Part shown: in pieces, positions 37,018 through 43,879 of the stretch | Position numbering within the stretch: position 1 is the stretch's first letter | Layout: every line of letters begins with the position of its first letter | Assembly: GCA_030695925.1 (NCBI GenBank) | Contig: JAUYOH010000031.1 | Span: forward strand, 5,188 to 69,187 | From: Candidatus Omnitrophota bacterium | GTDB lineage: Bacteria > Omnitrophota > Gorgyraeia > Pluralincolimonadales > Pluralincolimonadaceae | DNA length: 64,000 bases | Direction: 5' to 3' | Position numbers and translations under genes: made by a program | Notes under the pieces: model-generated | Told to the model about the DNA's origin: nothing | Databases searched by the model: none | The model's input: the letters and a program-made list of their open reading frames with translations, nothing else

Positions 37018-37060
37018 ATAATAATGATGCCCTTTCCCACGAGGGCATCATTATTATTTT
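37018..37060 (+). terminator. intrinsic terminator after etfA
   Basis: 16-bp perfect stem ataataatgatgccct/agggcatcattattat followed by T's. Confidence 0.8.
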
Positions 37061-37116: not shown

Positions 37117-37815
37117 ATGTTAAAAGATAGTTTTAAAATATTTTTAATTGCTTTGTGCTATCTTTCTTTTTTTCTTGTTCCCCCTTCCCGTGCGGAGAAT
37201 TTTATCCTCAATAGTAGCTTCGAAGATACGTTGGAAAACAAGAATCCGGTCGCGAGTAAGGATGCCGATGGCATTAAATACTGGATGCGATGGCTGCATC
37301 AAAATAATGAACGTTCAGATATAGCCGCCCATACCGGAAAATATTCATTTAAGAATTGGGAGAGCGGCGGCATATATCAAAATTTCGCGGCGCCGATAGA
37401 AAAAGGCAAGACCTACCGAATCAGTTGTTATATGTATACCCCAACCAGCGACCGCCTCAAAGGCGGCTCATACGAAATAATAAAGTTAGAGTGGTTAGAT
37501 ACAAATGGTGTCGTCATGGGGCCGGATACGGTTCAGAGCCCCCATTTCGACAGCAACATGCCAGCCGATACTTGGCATTTAATATCCGTACAGGGGAGTG
37601 CTCCTGAAAAAGCGGTAAACGGACGAGCGGTCCTGGAATTCATACCGTCCCAAGGCGGTTCAGGTGCGATATTTTGCGATGATGTAGAAGTCGAGGTCCT
37701 TGGCGGGGAGGGAGGCCAATTGACGGTATCTAAAGAAGAGATTAAGAAGGAAGAGGTGGTAAAGGAAGAGGTGGTAAATGAAAAGGAAGACGAAACTATA
37801 GATTGGCAATGGTAA
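37117..37815 (+). CDS. exported protein with CBM4/9-like (galactose-binding fold) domain and acidic tail
   Basis: signal peptide ending SRA; N.ILNSSFE, AHTGKYS, DDV pattern; fold inferred. Confidence 0.6.
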   Translation: MLKDSFKIFLIALCYLSFFLVPPSRAENFILNSSFEDTLENKNPVASKDADGIKYWMRWLHQNNERSDIAAHTGKYSFKNWESGGIYQNFAAPIEKGKTYRISCYMYTPTSDRLKGGSYEIIKLEWLDTNGVVMGPDTVQSPHFDSNMPADTWHLISVQGSAPEKAVNGRAVLEFIPSQGGSGAIFCDDVEVEVLGGEGGQLTVSKEEIKKEEVVKEEVVNEKEDETIDWQW

Positions 37816-40265
37816 AGCCCTTATTACTCGCAGTATTATTTTCTTTCTTGTCGCTAACCGTTATAAATTTAGCGAATGCCGAAACAGACAGCGAGCTATT
37901 TTCCCGCGGAGAAAAATTTTTAAATAATAGCGAATTCGACAGCGCTATTAAAACTTTTCAGACCTTAATAGATAAATATCCTTATAGCAAATTCATCCCA
38001 TATGCCATTTATGATCAGGCCCTCGCTTTTTTGGAGATCGGTGAATACCAACAGGCGGAAGCGAATTTCAAGAGGATCGGCAAAGACTTTGCATATTTAA
38101 AAGATTTAATACCGAAGGCCCAGTTTGGGTTGGCAGAATGTTATTTAAGGATGGGGAAGGACGACCTGGCGGATTCGATCTATAGTTCCTTATTAAATAA
38201 GGATTTAGCCAAGGCGCCCGATGTGCTTTTTAACAAGGCATGGGTTTATTATAAGCAGAATAAATGGGATTTAGCGGCCGCATTTTTTAAAAGAATGGTC
38301 GAGCGCTATCCGACCGATCAGAAGGCATTAGACGCAAAGTTTATGCTGGCCAGCATCTATAAAGAGCAAGGAAGATATAAAAGGGCGGTAGATGTTTTTA
38401 AGACGATACCCAAGGATTCAAAGTTGGCCAACGATACCTATTTTAATCTGGGCGAGATCGCGTTTACGGTCAAGAATTATTCTAAGGCGGTAGAATTTTT
38501 CCGCAACGTAAAGCCCAAAAGCGAGATTTTCGGAGAAAAGGCAAATTTGGCAGAACTCGCGCGGTATCAAACGGGGCTGGCTTATTATGAACAGGGCAAA
38601 ATATATGAGGCGCGGATAATATGTGAGGATTTTCTGGAGAGATATCCCGAAAGTAAATTGACAAAGGATGTGTGCCATCTATTGGTCATCACTTATTTAA
38701 AACAAAGAAAAGTTGACGAGGCGGCCCAGGCATATAAAGATTACTCGCGCCTTGACCCGGAGGGCGCGCGGAAACTTAATATAAATTTCTTCATAGGGGA
38801 ATCCTTTTACGAAAAGGGCGAATATAAAGAGGCAATAGGATTTTATCAAAAGCAACTTGCGGAATCCAAAGAGGCCGAGTATACCGAGAAGGGCCTGGCG
38901 AGATTAGGGGAAAGCCACTTTTACCTTAATGACTATACTAAGGCAGAAGAGGCCTATAAGGAATATCTCAAGACGTATCCGAACGGGCCGTCAGCGCCGC
39001 ATTTCGCTTTTAGATTGGCGTATATCTTCGCGACTCAAAATAATTACGCTTCGGCGCTGAAGCTCTATAAGATGATCGAGGAGAAGTTCCCTAAGTTGGA
39101 GTATATAGATAATGTGATTTATAACATAGGGTGGTGCTATTCCCGGTCGGGAGAGTCCGGTGAAGCGCTGGCCTATTTTAAAAAATTCATAGAGAGCTAT
39201 CCGGAAAACAAATTGGCGTCGGCCACTACGTATGAGATCGGGAATATATATTTTAATAACAGGCAATACGCTCAAGCCGCCGAGTATTATAAGCAATTGG
39301 TTGAGAAATATCCCCAAAGCGAAACAATAGAAGCTGCTTCGTATCGGCTGGGCATCAGCTATCTATATTCCTCAAAACGGGATGAGGCATTGAACGAACT
39401 GAAGATCTTCTTAAACAAGAATCCTACCAGCCCATTAGCCGTTGAAGTCATAGATAGTATTTACAATATCTATTTGAACCAGAAAAAATACAGGGAAGGA
39501 ATCGCGGCCTTCGAGGAGCTGGCGAAAAAACATTCCCAGCAAAAAGCCATCTTGGCGGAACTGTACAGTTGCCTTGCAAATCTCTACCTTATTTCCGGAG
39601 ATTCGCCGCATGCCACCAAGACCGTGCAGGAAATGCTGTCGGCATATAATGATTTTTCAGATACGTCTCCTTCTGAAAATGCCGCTTATTCCATCGGCCA
39701 AATTTTAGTCGAAGCAAACAATAGTTCAGAGGCCGTTAAATTTTATAGCGACATTTTAGCCAGATATAAAGATGATACGCTGACCGAAGTGTCTTTATTC
39801 GGGAGGGGACAAGCGTATCTAAAATTAAAGTCATGGCAGGATGCAGCCGGAGATTTCAGCGAATTAATGTTTAAATATCCCAACACAAAATATGCGAGCA
39901 GAGCCAAATTAGGGATCGCGAATTCCTATTATAATCGCGATATCTTTAGCGAAGCGGTCAGATATTATAAAGATGTCGTCGATAATTACAAGGATGAGAC
40001 AACGGCCGAGGCCCTCTTCAAATTAGGCGACAGCTATTTTGCGCAAAAAAAATATGCTGAGTCCTTGCCAAACTTCCAGCGGGTTGCTATACTATATCCG
40101 CATCGCGAAGAATTGGCCGCCGAGTCCTTGCTTAAAGCCGGAGAATGCCAGGACAAACTGGGAAACAAGCAGGAAGCAAAAGCTTTATACGAGAAGCTCG
40201 TAGTCAAATACCCTAAAACGGAGGAAGCGAAAAAGGCGCAGGAGAGATTAAGGTCAATAAAGTAA
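37809..40265 (+). CDS. large exported tetratricopeptide-repeat protein
   Basis: signal peptide (ANA); many TPR_6/CpoB-like repeats ending ..KYP. Confidence 0.88.
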   Translation: MVKPLLLAVLFSFLSLTVINLANAETDSELFSRGEKFLNNSEFDSAIKTFQTLIDKYPYSKFIPYAIYDQALAFLEIGEYQQAEANFKRIGKDFAYLKDLIPKAQFGLAECYLRMGKDDLADSIYSSLLNKDLAKAPDVLFNKAWVYYKQNKWDLAAAFFKRMVERYPTDQKALDAKFMLASIYKEQGRYKRAVDVFKTIPKDSKLANDTYFNLGEIAFTVKNYSKAVEFFRNVKPKSEIFGEKANLAELARYQTGLAYYEQGKIYEARIICEDFLERYPESKLTKDVCHLLVITYLKQRKVDEAAQAYKDYSRLDPEGARKLNINFFIGESFYEKGEYKEAIGFYQKQLAESKEAEYTEKGLARLGESHFYLNDYTKAEEAYKEYLKTYPNGPSAPHFAFRLAYIFATQNNYASALKLYKMIEEKFPKLEYIDNVIYNIGWCYSRSGESGEALAYFKKFIESYPENKLASATTYEIGNIYFNNRQYAQAAEYYKQLVEKYPQSETIEAASYRLGISYLYSSKRDEALNELKIFLNKNPTSPLAVEVIDSIYNIYLNQKKYREGIAAFEELAKKHSQQKAILAELYSCLANLYLISGDSPHATKTVQEMLSAYNDFSDTSPSENAAYSIGQILVEANNSSEAVKFYSDILARYKDDTLTEVSLFGRGQAYLKLKSWQDAAGDFSELMFKYPNTKYASRAKLGIANSYYNRDIFSEAVRYYKDVVDNYKDETTAEALFKLGDSYFAQKKYAESLPNFQRVAILYPHREELAAESLLKAGECQDKLGNKQEAKALYEKLVVKYPKTEEAKKAQERLRSIK

Positions 40266-41101
40266 TGACAGTCAAAAAATTTAAACTACTTTTTAAGTTT
40301 TTATTTATGTGCCTTTTATTAAGGTGCGCTTTATCTTTTGCGCAGGACGAGATCATATTGAAAAACGGCAACGTTATAAGAGGTTCTATATTAAAAACGG
40401 ATAAGTCCGGTTTGAGCATAGAACTCTCTGAACCAAAAGCGATTATAGTGGTACCGCTGGCGAATATAGATAAGTTCAGGATAGAAATGCCGGATTTCTT
40501 CCGTATAGCGGAGGATTATTATCTCGCTAAAAAATATGATCAGGCTTACCCGCTCTATTTAAAGACTATTCAAAAATATGGGGGGTTTAACTGGGGAGAG
40601 GATGCCTATTTTAAGGCAGCCGATTGCCAGGTAAAGACAGGCGATGTCCCTAAAGCGATAGAGCTCTATAATGATTACATCGGTGATTATCCGGACGCCA
40701 AATTGGTAAATAAAGCCAGGATGAACTTAGCGGCTCTTTTATCCGGAAAGGGCGATTATGACAGCGCGATAAAAATTTACGACGCGGTGATACGTTCAAA
40801 AGATGAATTAAGCCGTCCCGATGCCTATTATGGAAGCGCGGAATCCTATTTTGCTCAAGGCGCATATGAGCAGGCTTTGGTTAATTACCTTAAGATAGAG
40901 GTGCTTTATTACGATAAGAGTAATTTAGTCGCGAATGCTAAATTTAAAAGCGGAGAATGTTATGAGAAATTAGGTGCAGGCGAAAAGGCGCTGGTAACTT
41001 ATAGGGAGATAATAGCTGGATTTCCTAAAAGCGACTTCGCCGGCAAATCGAAGGCTAAACTAAAGAAGTTAGAAGAAAGGGGGAAGAAAGATGCTACGTA
41101 A
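40265..41101 (+). CDS. exported TPR protein with N-terminal D.I.LKNG..I.G.I domain
   Basis: signal peptide (SFA) and TPR helices. Confidence 0.8.
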   Translation: MTVKKFKLLFKFLFMCLLLRCALSFAQDEIILKNGNVIRGSILKTDKSGLSIELSEPKAIIVVPLANIDKFRIEMPDFFRIAEDYYLAKKYDQAYPLYLKTIQKYGGFNWGEDAYFKAADCQVKTGDVPKAIELYNDYIGDYPDAKLVNKARMNLAALLSGKGDYDSAIKIYDAVIRSKDELSRPDAYYGSAESYFAQGAYEQALVNYLKIEVLYYDKSNLVANAKFKSGECYEKLGAGEKALVTYREIIAGFPKSDFAGKSKAKLKKLEERGKKDAT

Positions 41102-41825
41102 AAATGCGGTGAGGATTATCGGTTTTGTATCGTTGTCGGTGATGGTTTTATTTGCGTTTTCCGCGATGGCGGAAGATGCTGCCGCCACGTCCGCGCCGAA
41201 AGCCATGACATTATGGGATACATGGGTAGCCGGCGGCTGGTGTATGCCCCCGATCGCATTATGTTCGGTGTTCGGCGTGGCCCTGATAATAGAAATGTTC
41301 ATTGTATTGCGCAAATCCGAGATGTTGCCGATTGATTATCTGGGGGCGGTCAAGATGGCGATAAAGAACGGGGATATACAGGGGGCAATAAATTTAGGCA
41401 GCTTAAGAAAAGGTTTCCTGGCCAATGTCATCCAGGCAGGGCTCGAAAAAAACGGCCAAGAATTACAGATCATCCAGGATGCGATGACCATGTCAGGCGT
41501 CAAGGAGGCAACGAGCCTTCAGCAGAGGATCGGCTACCTTTCATCGATAGGCACGATCTCGCCGATGCTCGGTCTGCTCGGGACAGTTTTTGGTATGATC
41601 TCGTCATTCAATGTAATCGCCTTCCAGGCGGGGTTGGGCAAGCCGACGTTATTGGCCAAAGGCGTCGCCGAGGCCCTGATCACTACCGCGTTCGGATTGA
41701 TCGTAGGTATTCCGGTTATGGCCTTCTTTTTTTATTTCCGTAATAAGGCCAATGAGATAACCACGGAGATAGAGATCAATGCCAGTGAGGTCGCGCTGTT
41801 GCTGGCCGGAAAGACAAAGGGATAA
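41091..41825 (+). CDS. MotA/TolQ/ExbB proton channel protein
   Basis: SPMLGLLGTVFGMI, GVAEALITTAFGL; N-terminal signal-like extension. Confidence 0.93.
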   Translation: MLRKNAVRIIGFVSLSVMVLFAFSAMAEDAAATSAPKAMTLWDTWVAGGWCMPPIALCSVFGVALIIEMFIVLRKSEMLPIDYLGAVKMAIKNGDIQGAINLGSLRKGFLANVIQAGLEKNGQELQIIQDAMTMSGVKEATSLQQRIGYLSSIGTISPMLGLLGTVFGMISSFNVIAFQAGLGKPTLLAKGVAEALITTAFGLIVGIPVMAFFFYFRNKANEITTEIEINASEVALLLAGKTKG

Positions 41826-41829
41826 AGAA

Positions 41830-42240
41830 ATGAGATTCACAAAAAAAGAGCAGGAAGAGCCCGGGTTCCAGATGGCGCCGATGATCGACTGCGTATTCCT
41901 GTTGCTGATATATTTCATGTGCGTATCCAGTTTCCATCAATTGGAATCGATCGAAAGTATACAATTGCCCGTTGCGGACCAATCCCGGGCCGCTGAAGGA
42001 GCGGAGCAGAAGGTTTCAATAAATATTAAAAGCGACGGGGCGATAATCATGAACCAGAATATATACGAGCCCGAACAACTCGCGAAAGTGTTGTCCGGGA
42101 CCGGGATAAAACAAACGATCGTAATAAGGGCGGATAAAATTGTCCCGCATAGCAGGGTCCTCGATGTTTTGAGCGCCTGCGCCGCGGCGGGGATCTGGGA
42201 TATATCGTTTGCTACCTATCAGGAAGAGCCAAAAAAATGA
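41830..42240 (+). CDS. ExbD/TolR family protein 1
   Basis: MAPMIDCVFLLLIYF with TM Asp; IRAD motif. Confidence 0.92.
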   Translation: MRFTKKEQEEPGFQMAPMIDCVFLLLIYFMCVSSFHQLESIESIQLPVADQSRAAEGAEQKVSINIKSDGAIIMNQNIYEPEQLAKVLSGTGIKQTIVIRADKIVPHSRVLDVLSACAAAGIWDISFATYQEEPKK

Positions 42241-42249
42241 GACGGGAAA

Positions 42250-42696
42250 ATGAGATTTTTTAAGGGCGGTAACGAAGAGCCCGGGTTCCAGATGGCGCCG
42301 ATGATCGACTGCGTGTTCCTGTTGCTGATATTCTTCATGTGTTCTTCCAGCTTTACGGCGCCTGAGGCCGAGCTGAACATAGATCTGCCGGCGGTATCGA
42401 CCAAGACACAGGCAAAGATCGGGGAAGATGTAATAGTAAATGTCCTGTCGGACGGCAGTATTATGGTGAATGAGAAACAATACGGCAGCCCGGAATCAAA
42501 GGATATCCCCGAATTGGTGACGATGTTGACCGATTTGACTCAGATATTCGAAACTCAGCCGGTCATAATATTCGCCGACCCGGACGTTTCGCATGAAAGG
42601 GTAGTAGACGTTCTAAACGCCTGCGCCGCGGCGAAGATAAAGTCGGTGTCTTTTCTTGTTCCCGAAGAGCGTATTTTAAAGATCAGCAACAGATAA
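42250..42696 (+). CDS. ExbD/TolR family protein 2
   Basis: MAPMIDCVFLLLIFF with TM Asp; IDLP, IFAD. Confidence 0.92.
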   Translation: MRFFKGGNEEPGFQMAPMIDCVFLLLIFFMCSSSFTAPEAELNIDLPAVSTKTQAKIGEDVIVNVLSDGSIMVNEKQYGSPESKDIPELVTMLTDLTQIFETQPVIIFADPDVSHERVVDVLNACAAAKIKSVSFLVPEERILKISNR

Positions 42697-42712
42697 AAGA
42701 TCAAAGCAAGGA

Positions 42713-43819
42713 ATGCTAATGCGAGAAGAGGTTAAAAAATCCGGCAGTTTTGCAGTGTCGCTGTTTGTTCATATAGCGGTATTGCTGATCATAGGACACA
42801 TAATTGTAATGAAGCCCCAGCCAAAAGAGACGTTCTTTGAAGGAAAAATACTGTCCACAAAAAATGTTAGTGTTCAGCGAACTGCTAAGTTCCAGCCGGA
42901 AGTAAAAATGCCGCAGGAAGCGGCTACTTCGCCGACGAAAGAGATAACCGCACCGGAACGAAAGGCCCTCGCGGTCGATAGGGCTCTCGAACTTCCAGCT
43001 CCATCTATTGCCAAAACCCCTGAGATCGTGCCCGGGGAAATGAAAGTGGGGGAACGCAAAGAGGTGGTATCCGCGAAACCGTCCCGCGCGACGCTGGATT
43101 TCTCCTCAAAGGCCCAGGTAACCGGAAGCGGCGGTTCGATAAAGGGCACTTTCATTTTTCCGATTTCTACCTACTCGGATTGGGATAATGACCCGTCGAC
43201 CATCCCGAACTTAATGAATGAGTTCGGCAGGAGGACGAAGATCAAAGTTTCCATAGACCAGCGGCCCATAAATTTTGATGATAAGGAAAAAATCTTCCAA
43301 TATCCGCTGATATACACAAACGGCCATTCAAATTTTAGTTTTACGGAAAAAGAGGTGGAGAATATCCGGGAATATCTTATGCGTGGCGGCTTCTTGTTCA
43401 TAGTCAATGATAATGCGCAAGGCGGAGCTTTCGAGGAGTCGCTTTACAAAGAGATGAAAAGGATTTTCCCCAATTCCGAGTTTCAGAAAGTCCCGATGAG
43501 CCATCCGATATATCATATTTTTTATGATTTTCAGGGAGACCGGCTACCCGATGCTCTATATAAGGGCTTGCCGCCGGAAGGATACGCGATTTATTACGGA
43601 GACAGAATGGTCGTTTATTATCTGGCGACCGGCGATGTTTGCGACGGCTGGACAGAAGCAGAAGGGTCCAAATGGCCGGGGACAAGATACACCCCAACCG
43701 CAAGTCATAACTTCGGGAGGCTTTCCCAGCAATCCTTCGGCGCAGGAGACGAGGGTATAGAAAACTCCTTCAAGATAGGAGTAAACGTCCTTGTTTATAT
43801 CCTCTCCAACATGCCGTAA
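42713..43819 (+). CDS. TonB/TolA-like anchored protein with C-terminal DUF4159-like domain
   Basis: TM with S-x3-H (SLFVH), P/K/E/T-rich linker, then DW..DP, YP.IY..GH, E...IR.YL..GGF, HPI.H, GVN...Y. Confidence 0.72.
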   Translation: MLMREEVKKSGSFAVSLFVHIAVLLIIGHIIVMKPQPKETFFEGKILSTKNVSVQRTAKFQPEVKMPQEAATSPTKEITAPERKALAVDRALELPAPSIAKTPEIVPGEMKVGERKEVVSAKPSRATLDFSSKAQVTGSGGSIKGTFIFPISTYSDWDNDPSTIPNLMNEFGRRTKIKVSIDQRPINFDDKEKIFQYPLIYTNGHSNFSFTEKEVENIREYLMRGGFLFIVNDNAQGGAFEESLYKEMKRIFPNSEFQKVPMSHPIYHIFYDFQGDRLPDALYKGLPPEGYAIYYGDRMVVYYLATGDVCDGWTEAEGSKWPGTRYTPTASHNFGRLSQQSFGAGDEGIENSFKIGVNVLVYILSNMP

Positions 43820-43850: not shown

Positions 43851-43879
43851 TTGACAATCCTCTATCCATATGGTATACT
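43851..43879 (+). promoter_or_regulatory. sigma70 promoter upstream of cvpA
   Basis: TTGACA-17 nt-TATACT with TG extension. Confidence 0.8.

Follow-up and report, generated by a model that had tools for sequence, protein, structure and literature searches.

What does an ExbB-ExbD proton motor drive when the gene that follows it encodes a protein with neither a TonB nor a TolA C-terminal domain? This question is raised by a seven-gene operon at positions 37117-43819 of the window, which is the whole 64,000-nucleotide stretch of contig JAUYOH010000031.1 (assembly GCA_030695925.1) analysed here from a Candidatus Omnitrophota bacterium. The seven open reading frames (ORFs) all lie on the + strand, overlap or nearly abut, and encode in order a secreted protein that resembles a carbohydrate-binding module (CBM), a large and a small tetratricopeptide repeat (TPR) protein, ExbB, two ExbD paralogs, and a candidate force transducer of 368 amino acids that is called gene 7 below. 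A first-pass annotation of the window had proposed a machine driven by the proton motive force (PMF) that differs from a classical Ton system, and this part of the proposal holds, with a transducer built like TonB or TolA and a DUF4159 domain in the place of TonB_C. We consider it probable that the locus encodes a Ton/Tol-like envelope machine that is driven by the PMF and works through an arm other than TonB or TolA, and that it is a sister of the motor-driven transducers with a von Willebrand A (vWA) head. Pfam and NCBIfam profile searches were run on all seven proteins.

Gene 7 (42713-43819) matches DUF4159 (PF13709) with an E value of 9.4e-42 and 143.2 bits against a cut-off of 25.9, and the match covers profile positions 10-202 of 202. 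Pfam searches at E values up to 0.01 gave no TonB_C (PF03544) and no VWA family match, and no NCBIfam family was assigned. In an AF2 model based on a 74-sequence alignment, with a predicted local distance difference test (pLDDT) value of 78, residues 11-32 form a helix, residues 43-120 are disordered and residues 144-365 fold into an alpha/beta domain. The helix is the predicted transmembrane (TM) segment (42743-42808, pLDDT 90-94) and carries the TonB/TolA-type motif S16-L-F-V-H20, with the His codon at 42770-42772. It is followed by a linker that is expected to span the periplasm (residues 36-140, 42818-43132), where pLDDT falls below 50 for residues 43-120, and where proline, lysine and glutamate make up 31% of the residues compared with 18% in the C-terminal domain. 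The S-x3-H helix, the P/K/E-rich linker and the DUF4159-like end without TonB_C were all described in the first-pass annotation, and each is borne out by these results.

The histidine of this helix is retained across most of the family. Among the 15 closest homologs (47-100% identity) it is present in 15/15, and the position four residues before it is Ser in 5 and Ala in 10. A mixed alignment that includes 8 distant full-length relatives has His in 11/11 sequences and mostly Ala at the earlier position, and the 74-member family alignment has 62 His, nine Tyr, two Ala and one Ile in the same column. The helix is followed by a second conserved element that reads ..ETFFEGKILS.. and includes the invariant positions P33, F40 and I44 of the 15-sequence alignment (P0001 numbering, which runs two lower than that of the 368-residue protein). 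Its LF.G/K form persists in distant relatives. An ExbD-binding D-box has been described for TonB in the available portion of PMC12905483, and the post-helix motif may be its equivalent.

The DUF4159 head (residues 144-365, 43142-43807) has a three-layer alpha/beta fold that resembles class I glutamine amidotransferase (GATase1) and GIFT domains, without the Cys nucleophile. Its closest structural match is 4i66, which is found by Foldseek (E 2e-12, TM-score (target) 0.84), by VIA-align (Z 22.8, root-mean-square deviation 2.4 over 196 residues, 25% identity) and by hmmsearch against PDB (E 3e-13). The next VIA-align matches are the IFT52 GIFT domain (Z 8.8), the GATase1-like structure 3rht (Z 8.5), ThuA-like structures and OST48 (Z 7.6). 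There is no TonB_C and no vWA chain among the Foldseek and VIA-align matches listed, and absence from such a list is not exclusion. At the position we take to be the elbow where class I glutamine amidotransferases carry Cys, the head reads ..FIVNDNA.. with an Asn that is invariant in 11/11 sequences. Because of this invariant Asn, the head is read as a binding module and not as an amidotransferase. According to the accessible part of PMC4702930, Pfam's own paper, the assignment of DUF4159 to the glutaminase-I clan is based purely on structure.

Some of these structural neighbours bear on a different interpretation, put forward in the first-pass annotation, wherein the operon encodes a gliding or glycan-gripping machine that pulls on the cell wall, on a polysaccharide or on the surface of a host or prey. 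Contact would be made by the DUF4159 head together with the CBM-like protein, in the manner of the Agl-Glt system of Myxococcus. In its favour, IFT52 and OST48 are joined among the neighbours of the head by the middle domains of glycoside hydrolases (Z about 7). However, Z values of 7-9 lie near the common background by the tool's own rating, and nothing but a weak likeness of fold connects DUF4159 with sugars.

The three motor genes lie directly upstream of gene 7. ExbB (41091-41825, 244 amino acids) is a proton-channel subunit of the ExbB/TolQ type that matches MotA_ExbB (PF01618) with E 1.5e-29 and 102.8 bits against a cut-off of 22.9. The first ExbD/TolR paralog (41830-42240, 136 amino acids) could begin as early as 41779, and the ATG at 41830 was taken as its start. 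It matches PF02472 with E 2.5e-24 and 86.2 bits, and the second paralog (42250-42696, 148 amino acids) does so with E 6.9e-24 and 84.8 bits. The two are 48% identical, and both keep the membrane Asp20 that had been reported for them (APMID20CV, codons 41887-41889 and 42307-42309), the first within the sequence ..APMIDCVFLLL... The same Asp is found at the canonical column in both paralogs of 35 of the 38 related two-ExbD loci. With the chosen start for the first ExbD, the gaps between the seven genes are -13, -1, -11, +4, +9 and +16 nucleotides, in keeping with the tight packing originally described.

Against the NCBIfam equivalog models for TolQ, ExbB and MotA, the ExbB protein scores below every cut-off. 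The best NCBIfam models of the motor subunits are TolQ for ExbB and TolR for both ExbD proteins, all far under cut-off. These matches would suit a divergent Tol-Pal-like system for envelope integrity or division, in which the TPR proteins act as CpoB does and the DUF4159 head stands in for TolA domain III. The large TPR protein, TPR1 (37803-40265, 820 amino acids, with a signal peptide), also fits this alternative. It matches TPR_6 (E 9e-81) and its repeats are of the CpoB/BamD type, with the ybgF-type model TIGR02795 matched in 10 stretches (276.9 bits summed) and a further match to the NCBIfam BamD model. The CpoB equivalog NF008068 gives 118 bits against a cut-off of 383.

The small TPR protein, TPR2 (40265-41101, 278 amino acids, with a signal peptide), matches TPR_6 with E 3e-19. 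It begins with a small beta domain (..IILKNGNVIRGSI..) that is followed by about 4-5 TPRs, and it can be aligned over its full length, including the beta domain, across 19 sequences. A complex of TPR2 (residues 27-278) and the periplasmic portion of gene 7 (residues 36-368), both entered as alignments, was predicted without controls; its score of 0.00, against a mark of 0.32, speaks neither for nor against binding.

There are 65 DUF4159 loci in a scan of species-representative genomes, and eight of these encode close homologs of the full-length type, found in metagenome-assembled genomes (MAGs) labelled as Omnitrophota. The seven close loci for which upstream sequence exists all have ExbB-ExbD-ExbD immediately 5' of the DUF4159 gene. 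All six with enough flank carry both TPR genes, with TPR1 orthologs at the same position in all six and TPR2 orthologs immediately 5' of ExbB. The six-gene core, which is the operon minus the gene for the CBM-like protein, recurs in every related Omnitrophota locus with flanking sequence. The other 57 loci (Poribacteria, Acidobacteriota, Planctomycetota, Verrucomicrobiota and others) encode DUF4159 without the N-terminal anchor, and there is no ExbB or ExbD within 8 kb of these stand-alone genes.

The core is uncommon within the phylum. It was found in 5 of 401 sampled phylum genomes, this one included, with two families represented (2/5 and 2/3). In the related genome G049 the whole neighbourhood is syntenic with the window, and in G105 the six-gene core lies among unrelated genes. 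This difference in neighbourhood between G105 and the pair G000/G049 indicates that the core travels as a unit. Its behaviour is thus that of a module that can be transferred or readily lost.

More distant relatives preserve the same arrangement. An exhaustive profile search gave 3,745 DUF4159 representatives at E values up to 0.001, and several distant relatives were matched from the anchor through to the end of the head, the few named ones being Auribacterota and Omnitrophota MAG proteins. A metagenome scan seeded with eight distant relatives returned 80 loci with 71 full-length anchored DUF4159 ORFs. ExbD is immediately 5' of 37 of the 71, and 6 have too little flank to judge. Wherever there is an ExbD and enough flank, the upstream genes always comprise one ExbB and two ExbD. 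Directly 5' of ExbB in these cassettes comes a gene for a small TPR protein (TPR by Pfam in 12/12 cases) that aligns with TPR2 over its full length, and a TPR protein of 930-1017 amino acids is encoded two genes 5' of ExbB in 7 metagenome loci (7/7 TPR by Pfam). A class sample of 201 genomes around a Pontiella MAG, assigned to Kiritimatiellia by NCBI lineage, has ExbD-ExbD upstream in 19 loci. Thus, co-occurrence of the gene set, which the first-pass annotation had proposed to check, is evident in other Omnitrophota, in the metagenome loci and in the class sample.

A census of ExbD and FG-GAP neighbours, made with purpose-built hidden Markov models, shows how the gene on the other side of the transducer varies. 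In the class sample, all 18 loci that can be assessed on both sides have both neighbours, with none in the FG-GAP only, ExbD only or neither categories. The 55 assessable metagenome loci include 19 with both, 8 with FG-GAP only, 11 with ExbD only and 17 with neither. In the window's own Omnitrophota clade, all 7 assessable loci have ExbD only, and there are none with both, with FG-GAP only or with neither. The FG-GAP propeller is the gene after the transducer in 10 of 13 metagenome cases. A profile built from 9 FG-GAP sequences has no match in this genome, which is 94.6% complete. In most other lineages, an FG-GAP propeller gene accompanies that of the DUF4159 head and is tightly linked to it, and the Omnitrophota clade is without one, its closest members having a CBM_4_9-like secreted protein instead.

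The FG-GAP proteins themselves are 490-640 amino acids long and are encoded directly 3' of the anchored DUF4159 gene (L081-L148, L177-L198) in most non-Omnitrophota loci. The FG-GAP gene is also found after the transducer gene in 8 loci that have no neighbouring ExbD. The ends of these accessory proteins resemble a split jelly roll of the CBM_4_9 type, with NL..N..FE at the N terminus and ..F.LDD..L at the C terminus. CBM_4_9 itself is matched by 1 of 13 of them.

The first gene of the operon (37117-37815) encodes a secreted, CBM_4_9-like protein of 232 amino acids that is probably a beta-sandwich, as judged by Pfam and an Atlas feature search. Its match to Pfam CBM_4_9 (PF02018) has E 6e-4 and 20.6 bits over profile positions 2-76 of 136, and in the Atlas feature search it scores 0.94 against CBM_4_9 clusters. 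The Pfam score lies under the cut-off of 25.9, and for this reason the label 'CBM-like' given in the first-pass annotation survives as a lead, with a weak signal behind it. An AF2 model from 11 close homologs has a mean pLDDT of 55, with residues 85-195 alone reaching 70-86, and is too poor to serve in a fold search. The protein has an N-terminal signal-like segment and an acidic, Lys-rich tail that ends in EKEDxTIDW[EQ]W. This C-terminal tail is kept in 11/11 sequences, and the spacer before it is less conserved than the tail (37720-37815). The tail has an alternating hydrophobic pattern that would suit strand addition or TPR binding.

Ten homologs of this protein were found at 63-95% identity, and the three that are named are Omnitrophica MAG proteins or a 'hypothetical protein'. 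The gene is present with full neighbourhood synteny in G049. It is absent from the loci of G105 and G255 and from L010-L016, and is found in none of the eight close Omnitrophota loci. It is thus a clade-specific accessory gene outside the conserved core. A relationship to the FG-GAP accessory proteins of relatives was considered and rejected, with an hhalign probability of 1.3% over 29 columns; the N..N..FE start that the two have in common amounts to no more than a motif.

These results return us to the glycan-gripping or gliding interpretation. It is favoured by the weak CBM_4_9 signals in gene 1, by the FG-GAP proteins of relatives that begin and end like CBM_4_9 jelly rolls, with a single CBM_4_9 match among the 13, and by a description of Omnitrophota as host-dependent in the available portion of bioRxiv 10.64898/2026.06.07.730766. 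However, the CBM_4_9 score is under its curated cut-off, gene 1 occurs in the closest relatives only and so lies outside the conserved core, and it is unrelated to the FG-GAP proteins. With the background-level structural likeness of the head added, the claim that this machine grips a glycan is not upheld, and we regard this interpretation as unlikely.

A more specific picture of surface capture can also be drawn. A propeller beside an alpha/beta head recalls the head of an integrin. Perhaps the motor puts an integrin-like capture head under tension, of which the DUF4159 domain supplies the alpha/beta half, with the FG-GAP propeller as its partner in most lineages, and this host-dependent Omnitrophota clade has swapped the propeller for a small CBM-like lectin that plugs in through its conserved C-terminal TIDWxW strand. 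Taken jointly, these proposals are quite doubtful. If true, they would mean a PMF-powered grip on a surface glycan of a host or prey.

The rest of the genome provides the setting for the preferred Ton/Tol-like reading. The assembly comprises 1.70 Mb in 169 contigs and is estimated to be 94.6% complete and 7.4% contaminated, and the names borne by homologs point to Omnitrophota. It encodes one DUF4159 protein, two ExbB and three ExbD proteins. There is no receptor, TolB or Pal gene among the genes of the operon, as the description 'receptor-less' implied. This description is true of the locus and does not extend to the genome, which has one TonB-dependent receptor and a TonB. This sole receptor (644 amino acids, Plug plus barrel) is encoded on contig C48 (C48:28776-37167), where it adjoins a 245-amino acid TonB with an S-x3-H helix and a TonB_C match of 31.9 bits, a btuFCD-like ABC transporter and cobalamin salvage genes. 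The region has the appearance of a vitamin B12 uptake island that lacks exbBD genes of its own.

A second motor locus (C151:1370-5608) encodes a TPR protein of 823 amino acids, ExbB, one ExbD and a 265-amino acid protein with a weak TonB_C match. Its TPR protein aligns end to end with TPR1 (23% identity, E 7e-48), and its ExbB is 34% identical to that of the operon. The C151-type ExbD has an ortholog in 31/31 relatives. This locus looks like the standard system of the lineage, and the cassette in the window like a specialised paralog of it. The membrane Asp is considered essential for TolR and ExbD. In the C151 ExbD an Asn stands at this position. Among the orthologous loci compared (L242-L271), the Asp is lost in 17/17 genomes of the window's family (12 Asn, 2 Ser and 3 Gly), and 11 of 13 relatives at the order and class level keep it. 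In 5/5 family members there is a third ExbB-ExbD pair, which stands alone and retains the Asp (L272, L273, L280, L281 and L283, from G027, G049, G029, G229 and G105, respectively). A tblastn search found no counterpart of this pair in the 169-contig assembly, which is probably due to an assembly gap. Two near-identical short ORFs that match TonB_C are located at contig ends (C21:110-448 and C169:259-534), and they look like strain variants of one gene, which fits the 7.4% contamination.

One possibility raised by this inventory is that ExbB-ExbD1-ExbD2 is, or also is, the housekeeping Ton motor that serves the TonB of the BtuB-like receptor, with the DUF4159 protein as a second client. The genome has a single receptor and a TonB with no ExbBD beside them, and the only other ExbD in the assembly, that of C151, has Asn for the membrane Asp, both of which would favour such sharing. 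However, a third pair that retains the Asp is encoded by every one of the five family members examined, and its absence here may be an assembly gap. Moreover, the receptor is present in 5/5 family members, including three that do not have the cassette. We therefore hold this sharing to be improbable.

The same inventory bears on the Tol-Pal-like alternative introduced above. TIGR02800 finds no TolB in this 94.6%-complete genome, so another arrangement might supply the Tol function. However, the patchy distribution of the cassette (5/401 phylum genomes, 2/5 family members) is unlike an essential housekeeping role, and the universal locus is the TPR-ExbB-ExbD-TonB_C-like one of C151, as noted for all 31 relatives. 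There is also no Pal or TolB gene in or near the operon, the one OmpA-family gene being on contig C65. A divergent Tol-Pal system is a very unlikely explanation. In this genome the locus is a reduced, accessory version and not a housekeeping system.

For the Ton/Tol-like machine that we favour, gene content, motifs, fold and conserved synteny are matters of observation, and the Ton/Tol paradigm and published models suggest motor stoichiometry, docking, force transmission and a scaffolding role for the TPR proteins. ExbB, presumably as a pentamer, would form the inner-membrane motor with a mixed ExbD1/ExbD2 pair and convert proton flow into movement. Gene 7 would dock on this motor through its His-bearing N-terminal helix and the post-helix motif. 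The disordered linker of about 100 residues would then cross the periplasm and present the DUF4159 head where TonB_C would otherwise be. Perhaps a partner held by the head is pulled or remodelled in this way. TPR1 and TPR2 would be conserved periplasmic partners, possibly acting as scaffolds in the way that CpoB does for Tol.

Several observations weigh against this reading. Position -4 to the TM His in the 74-member alignment is Ala in 41 sequences, Ser in 30 and Thr in 3, so the conservation expected of the SxxxH helix applies to its His (15/15 in close homologs, 62/74 more widely) and not to its Ser. Twelve of the 74 members have Tyr, Ala or Ile where the His would be, and some of these still lie behind ExbB-ExbD-ExbD; the His is therefore not universally required. 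In the metagenome set, 28 of 71 homologs are without an adjacent ExbD, with no uniform neighbour pattern as judged by gene size, and the 17 of 55 assessable loci flanked by neither ExbD nor FG-GAP point in the same direction. The cassette is rare in its own phylum and absent from three of the five sampled family members, and is therefore dispensable. No outer-membrane partner is encoded at the locus. Finally, binding between the proteins and the transmission of force are inferences from motifs, synteny and analogy.

The boundaries of the operon are marked on both sides. At its 5' end, a terminator-like hairpin on the + strand (37018-37057) closes the etfB/etfA unit. It has a perfect 17-bp stem followed by a U-rich tail, with a folding energy of -25.4 kcal/mol and a z score of -8.07 (0 of 200 shuffles as good), and is missing from the output of the consensus terminator scan. 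At its 3' end is the promoter-like site of a downstream cvpA-like gene (43851-43879, + strand), which reads TTGACA-17-TATACT with 11 of 12 positions matched and an added TG. The GC content is 0.39-0.45 at 37.0-41.0 kb and 0.47-0.51 at 41.0-43.7 kb, compared with 0.49-0.56 upstream. The three 5' genes, for the CBM-like protein, TPR1 and TPR2, are 5-10 GC points under the motor and transducer genes and the flanks, which may reflect either repeats rich in Lys, Asn and Tyr or a separate origin. The terminator, the cvpA promoter, the AT-richer 5' half and the seven genes themselves were thus all as first annotated. The observation of the operon is confirmed, and its interpretation is partly supported, since the operon was seen correctly and its function was over-read.

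The Ton and Tol systems were long the sole known routes by which energy passes from the inner membrane to the outer envelope in diderm bacteria, until a 2025 survey added transducers with vWA heads. The same chassis, which comprises a large and a small TPR protein, ExbB, two ExbD and a His anchor, also bears a second and unrelated head, DUF4159. This form occurs in Omnitrophota, in the Kiritimatiellia class sample, among proteins named as Auribacterota and on many metagenome contigs. In the searched literature DUF4159 is named in a Pfam database paper only, and there was no report that joins Omnitrophota with ExbB, or a force transducer or ExbD with FG-GAP. The available portions of the literature on Omnitrophota and TonB do not describe this cassette. 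DUF4159, a family with about 3,700 representatives, here gains its first functional context. The locus is of moderate interest in this genome and of greater interest as a family, on account of the DUF4159 head, the FG-GAP partner and the TPR pair, and cultivable Kiritimatiellota are tractable organisms in which to ask what these motors do.

A comparison with known systems can begin with Ton, which has in common with the operon the MotA_ExbB and ExbD families, the membrane Asp, the S-x3-H helix and the periplasm-spanning linker. The operon differs from it in having two ExbD paralogs and two TPR proteins, with no TonB_C or receptor in the locus. Tol-Pal with CpoB is similar in that the subunits score best against the TolQ and TolR models and the TPR_6 repeats are of the CpoB/BamD type. 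In contrast, gene 7 has no TolA C-terminal domain, the genome gave no TolB match, the locus lacks Pal, and the cassette is rare and patchy in the phylum.

The first-pass annotation had likened the operon to AglRQS-Glt of Myxococcus, which comprises one TolQ-like protein, two TolR-like proteins and TPR proteins nearby, a match made on gene content only. One ExbB with two ExbD, as in AglR, AglQ and AglS, would favour the gliding interpretation. However, this combination is not specific to gliding, as it is present in all cassettes surveyed. TPR2 scores 16.8 bits against the GltE model NF033758, whose cut-off is 225, and the head of the transducer is unrelated. No Glt outer-membrane genes flank the locus and no other Glt part is near it, although other Glt proteins were not specifically searched for. 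The likeness is therefore not specific, and the closer match is to the TPR-tolQ-tolR-tolR loci of Planctomycetota-Verrucomicrobiota-Chlamydiota (PVC) bacteria. The head of gene 7 is the same domain as Hoch_4089 of Haliangium ochraceum, the stand-alone DUF4159 protein of function unknown whose structure is 4i66.

The closest parallel is thus with the 'vWA' motor-driven force transducers of PVC bacteria, described as being of unknown function in the available text of Williams-Jones et al. 2025 (PMC12204202). According to this text, their helix bears an SHLS motif and a conserved His, through which AF3 docks it on the motor, and their linker is disordered and about 100 residues long. Gene 7 is alike in its His helix, its disordered linker of about 100 residues and its globular C-terminal domain that is not TonB. 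The gene order described there, with TPR, tolQ-like, two different tolR-like and transducer genes, is also that of the window. The difference lies in the head, which is a von Willebrand A domain in the published proteins and the GATase1/GIFT-like DUF4159 domain in gene 7. In addition, the DUF4159 family usually has an FG-GAP gene 3' of the transducer, and FG-GAP is unmentioned in the main text of PMC12204202 as far as that text is available.

Loci of the vWA type were sought among 30 ExbD loci from 41 class-sample genomes, and five two-ExbD loci were extended. Three of the five have TPR-ExbB-ExbD-ExbD followed by a protein of 446-460 amino acids that matches VWA with E values of 2e-4 to 2e-3 and has no DUF4159. 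These proteins are encoded at L238:4526-5908, L240:4546-5886 and L239:3186-4565, and in one locus a PEGA-domain protein comes next. At a further two-ExbD locus (L241), the downstream protein of 644 amino acids has no Pfam match, and an alpha-1,3-glucanase-like gene lies beside the motor genes. The helix-anchored proteins of L238-L240 with weak VWA matches are probably the published vWA transducers. An hhalign comparison of the DUF4159 family with one such transducer aligns the membrane helix alone (32 columns, E 8e-4). Identity of the published vWA family with the DUF4159 family is made less likely by these transducers, which occur in the class that also has DUF4159-type loci, and by an alignment confined to the helix. 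Most likely, the published family is the vWA one, and both heads exist on a similar anchor. Because true vWA loci exist and only the membrane helix aligns, the DUF4159 type is read as a sister head variant, with the same operon plan and anchor as the vWA transducers and a different head. The locus is accordingly classed with the motor-driven force transducers reported in 2025, as a form that has a DUF4159 head and a CBM-like accessory protein and lacks FG-GAP.

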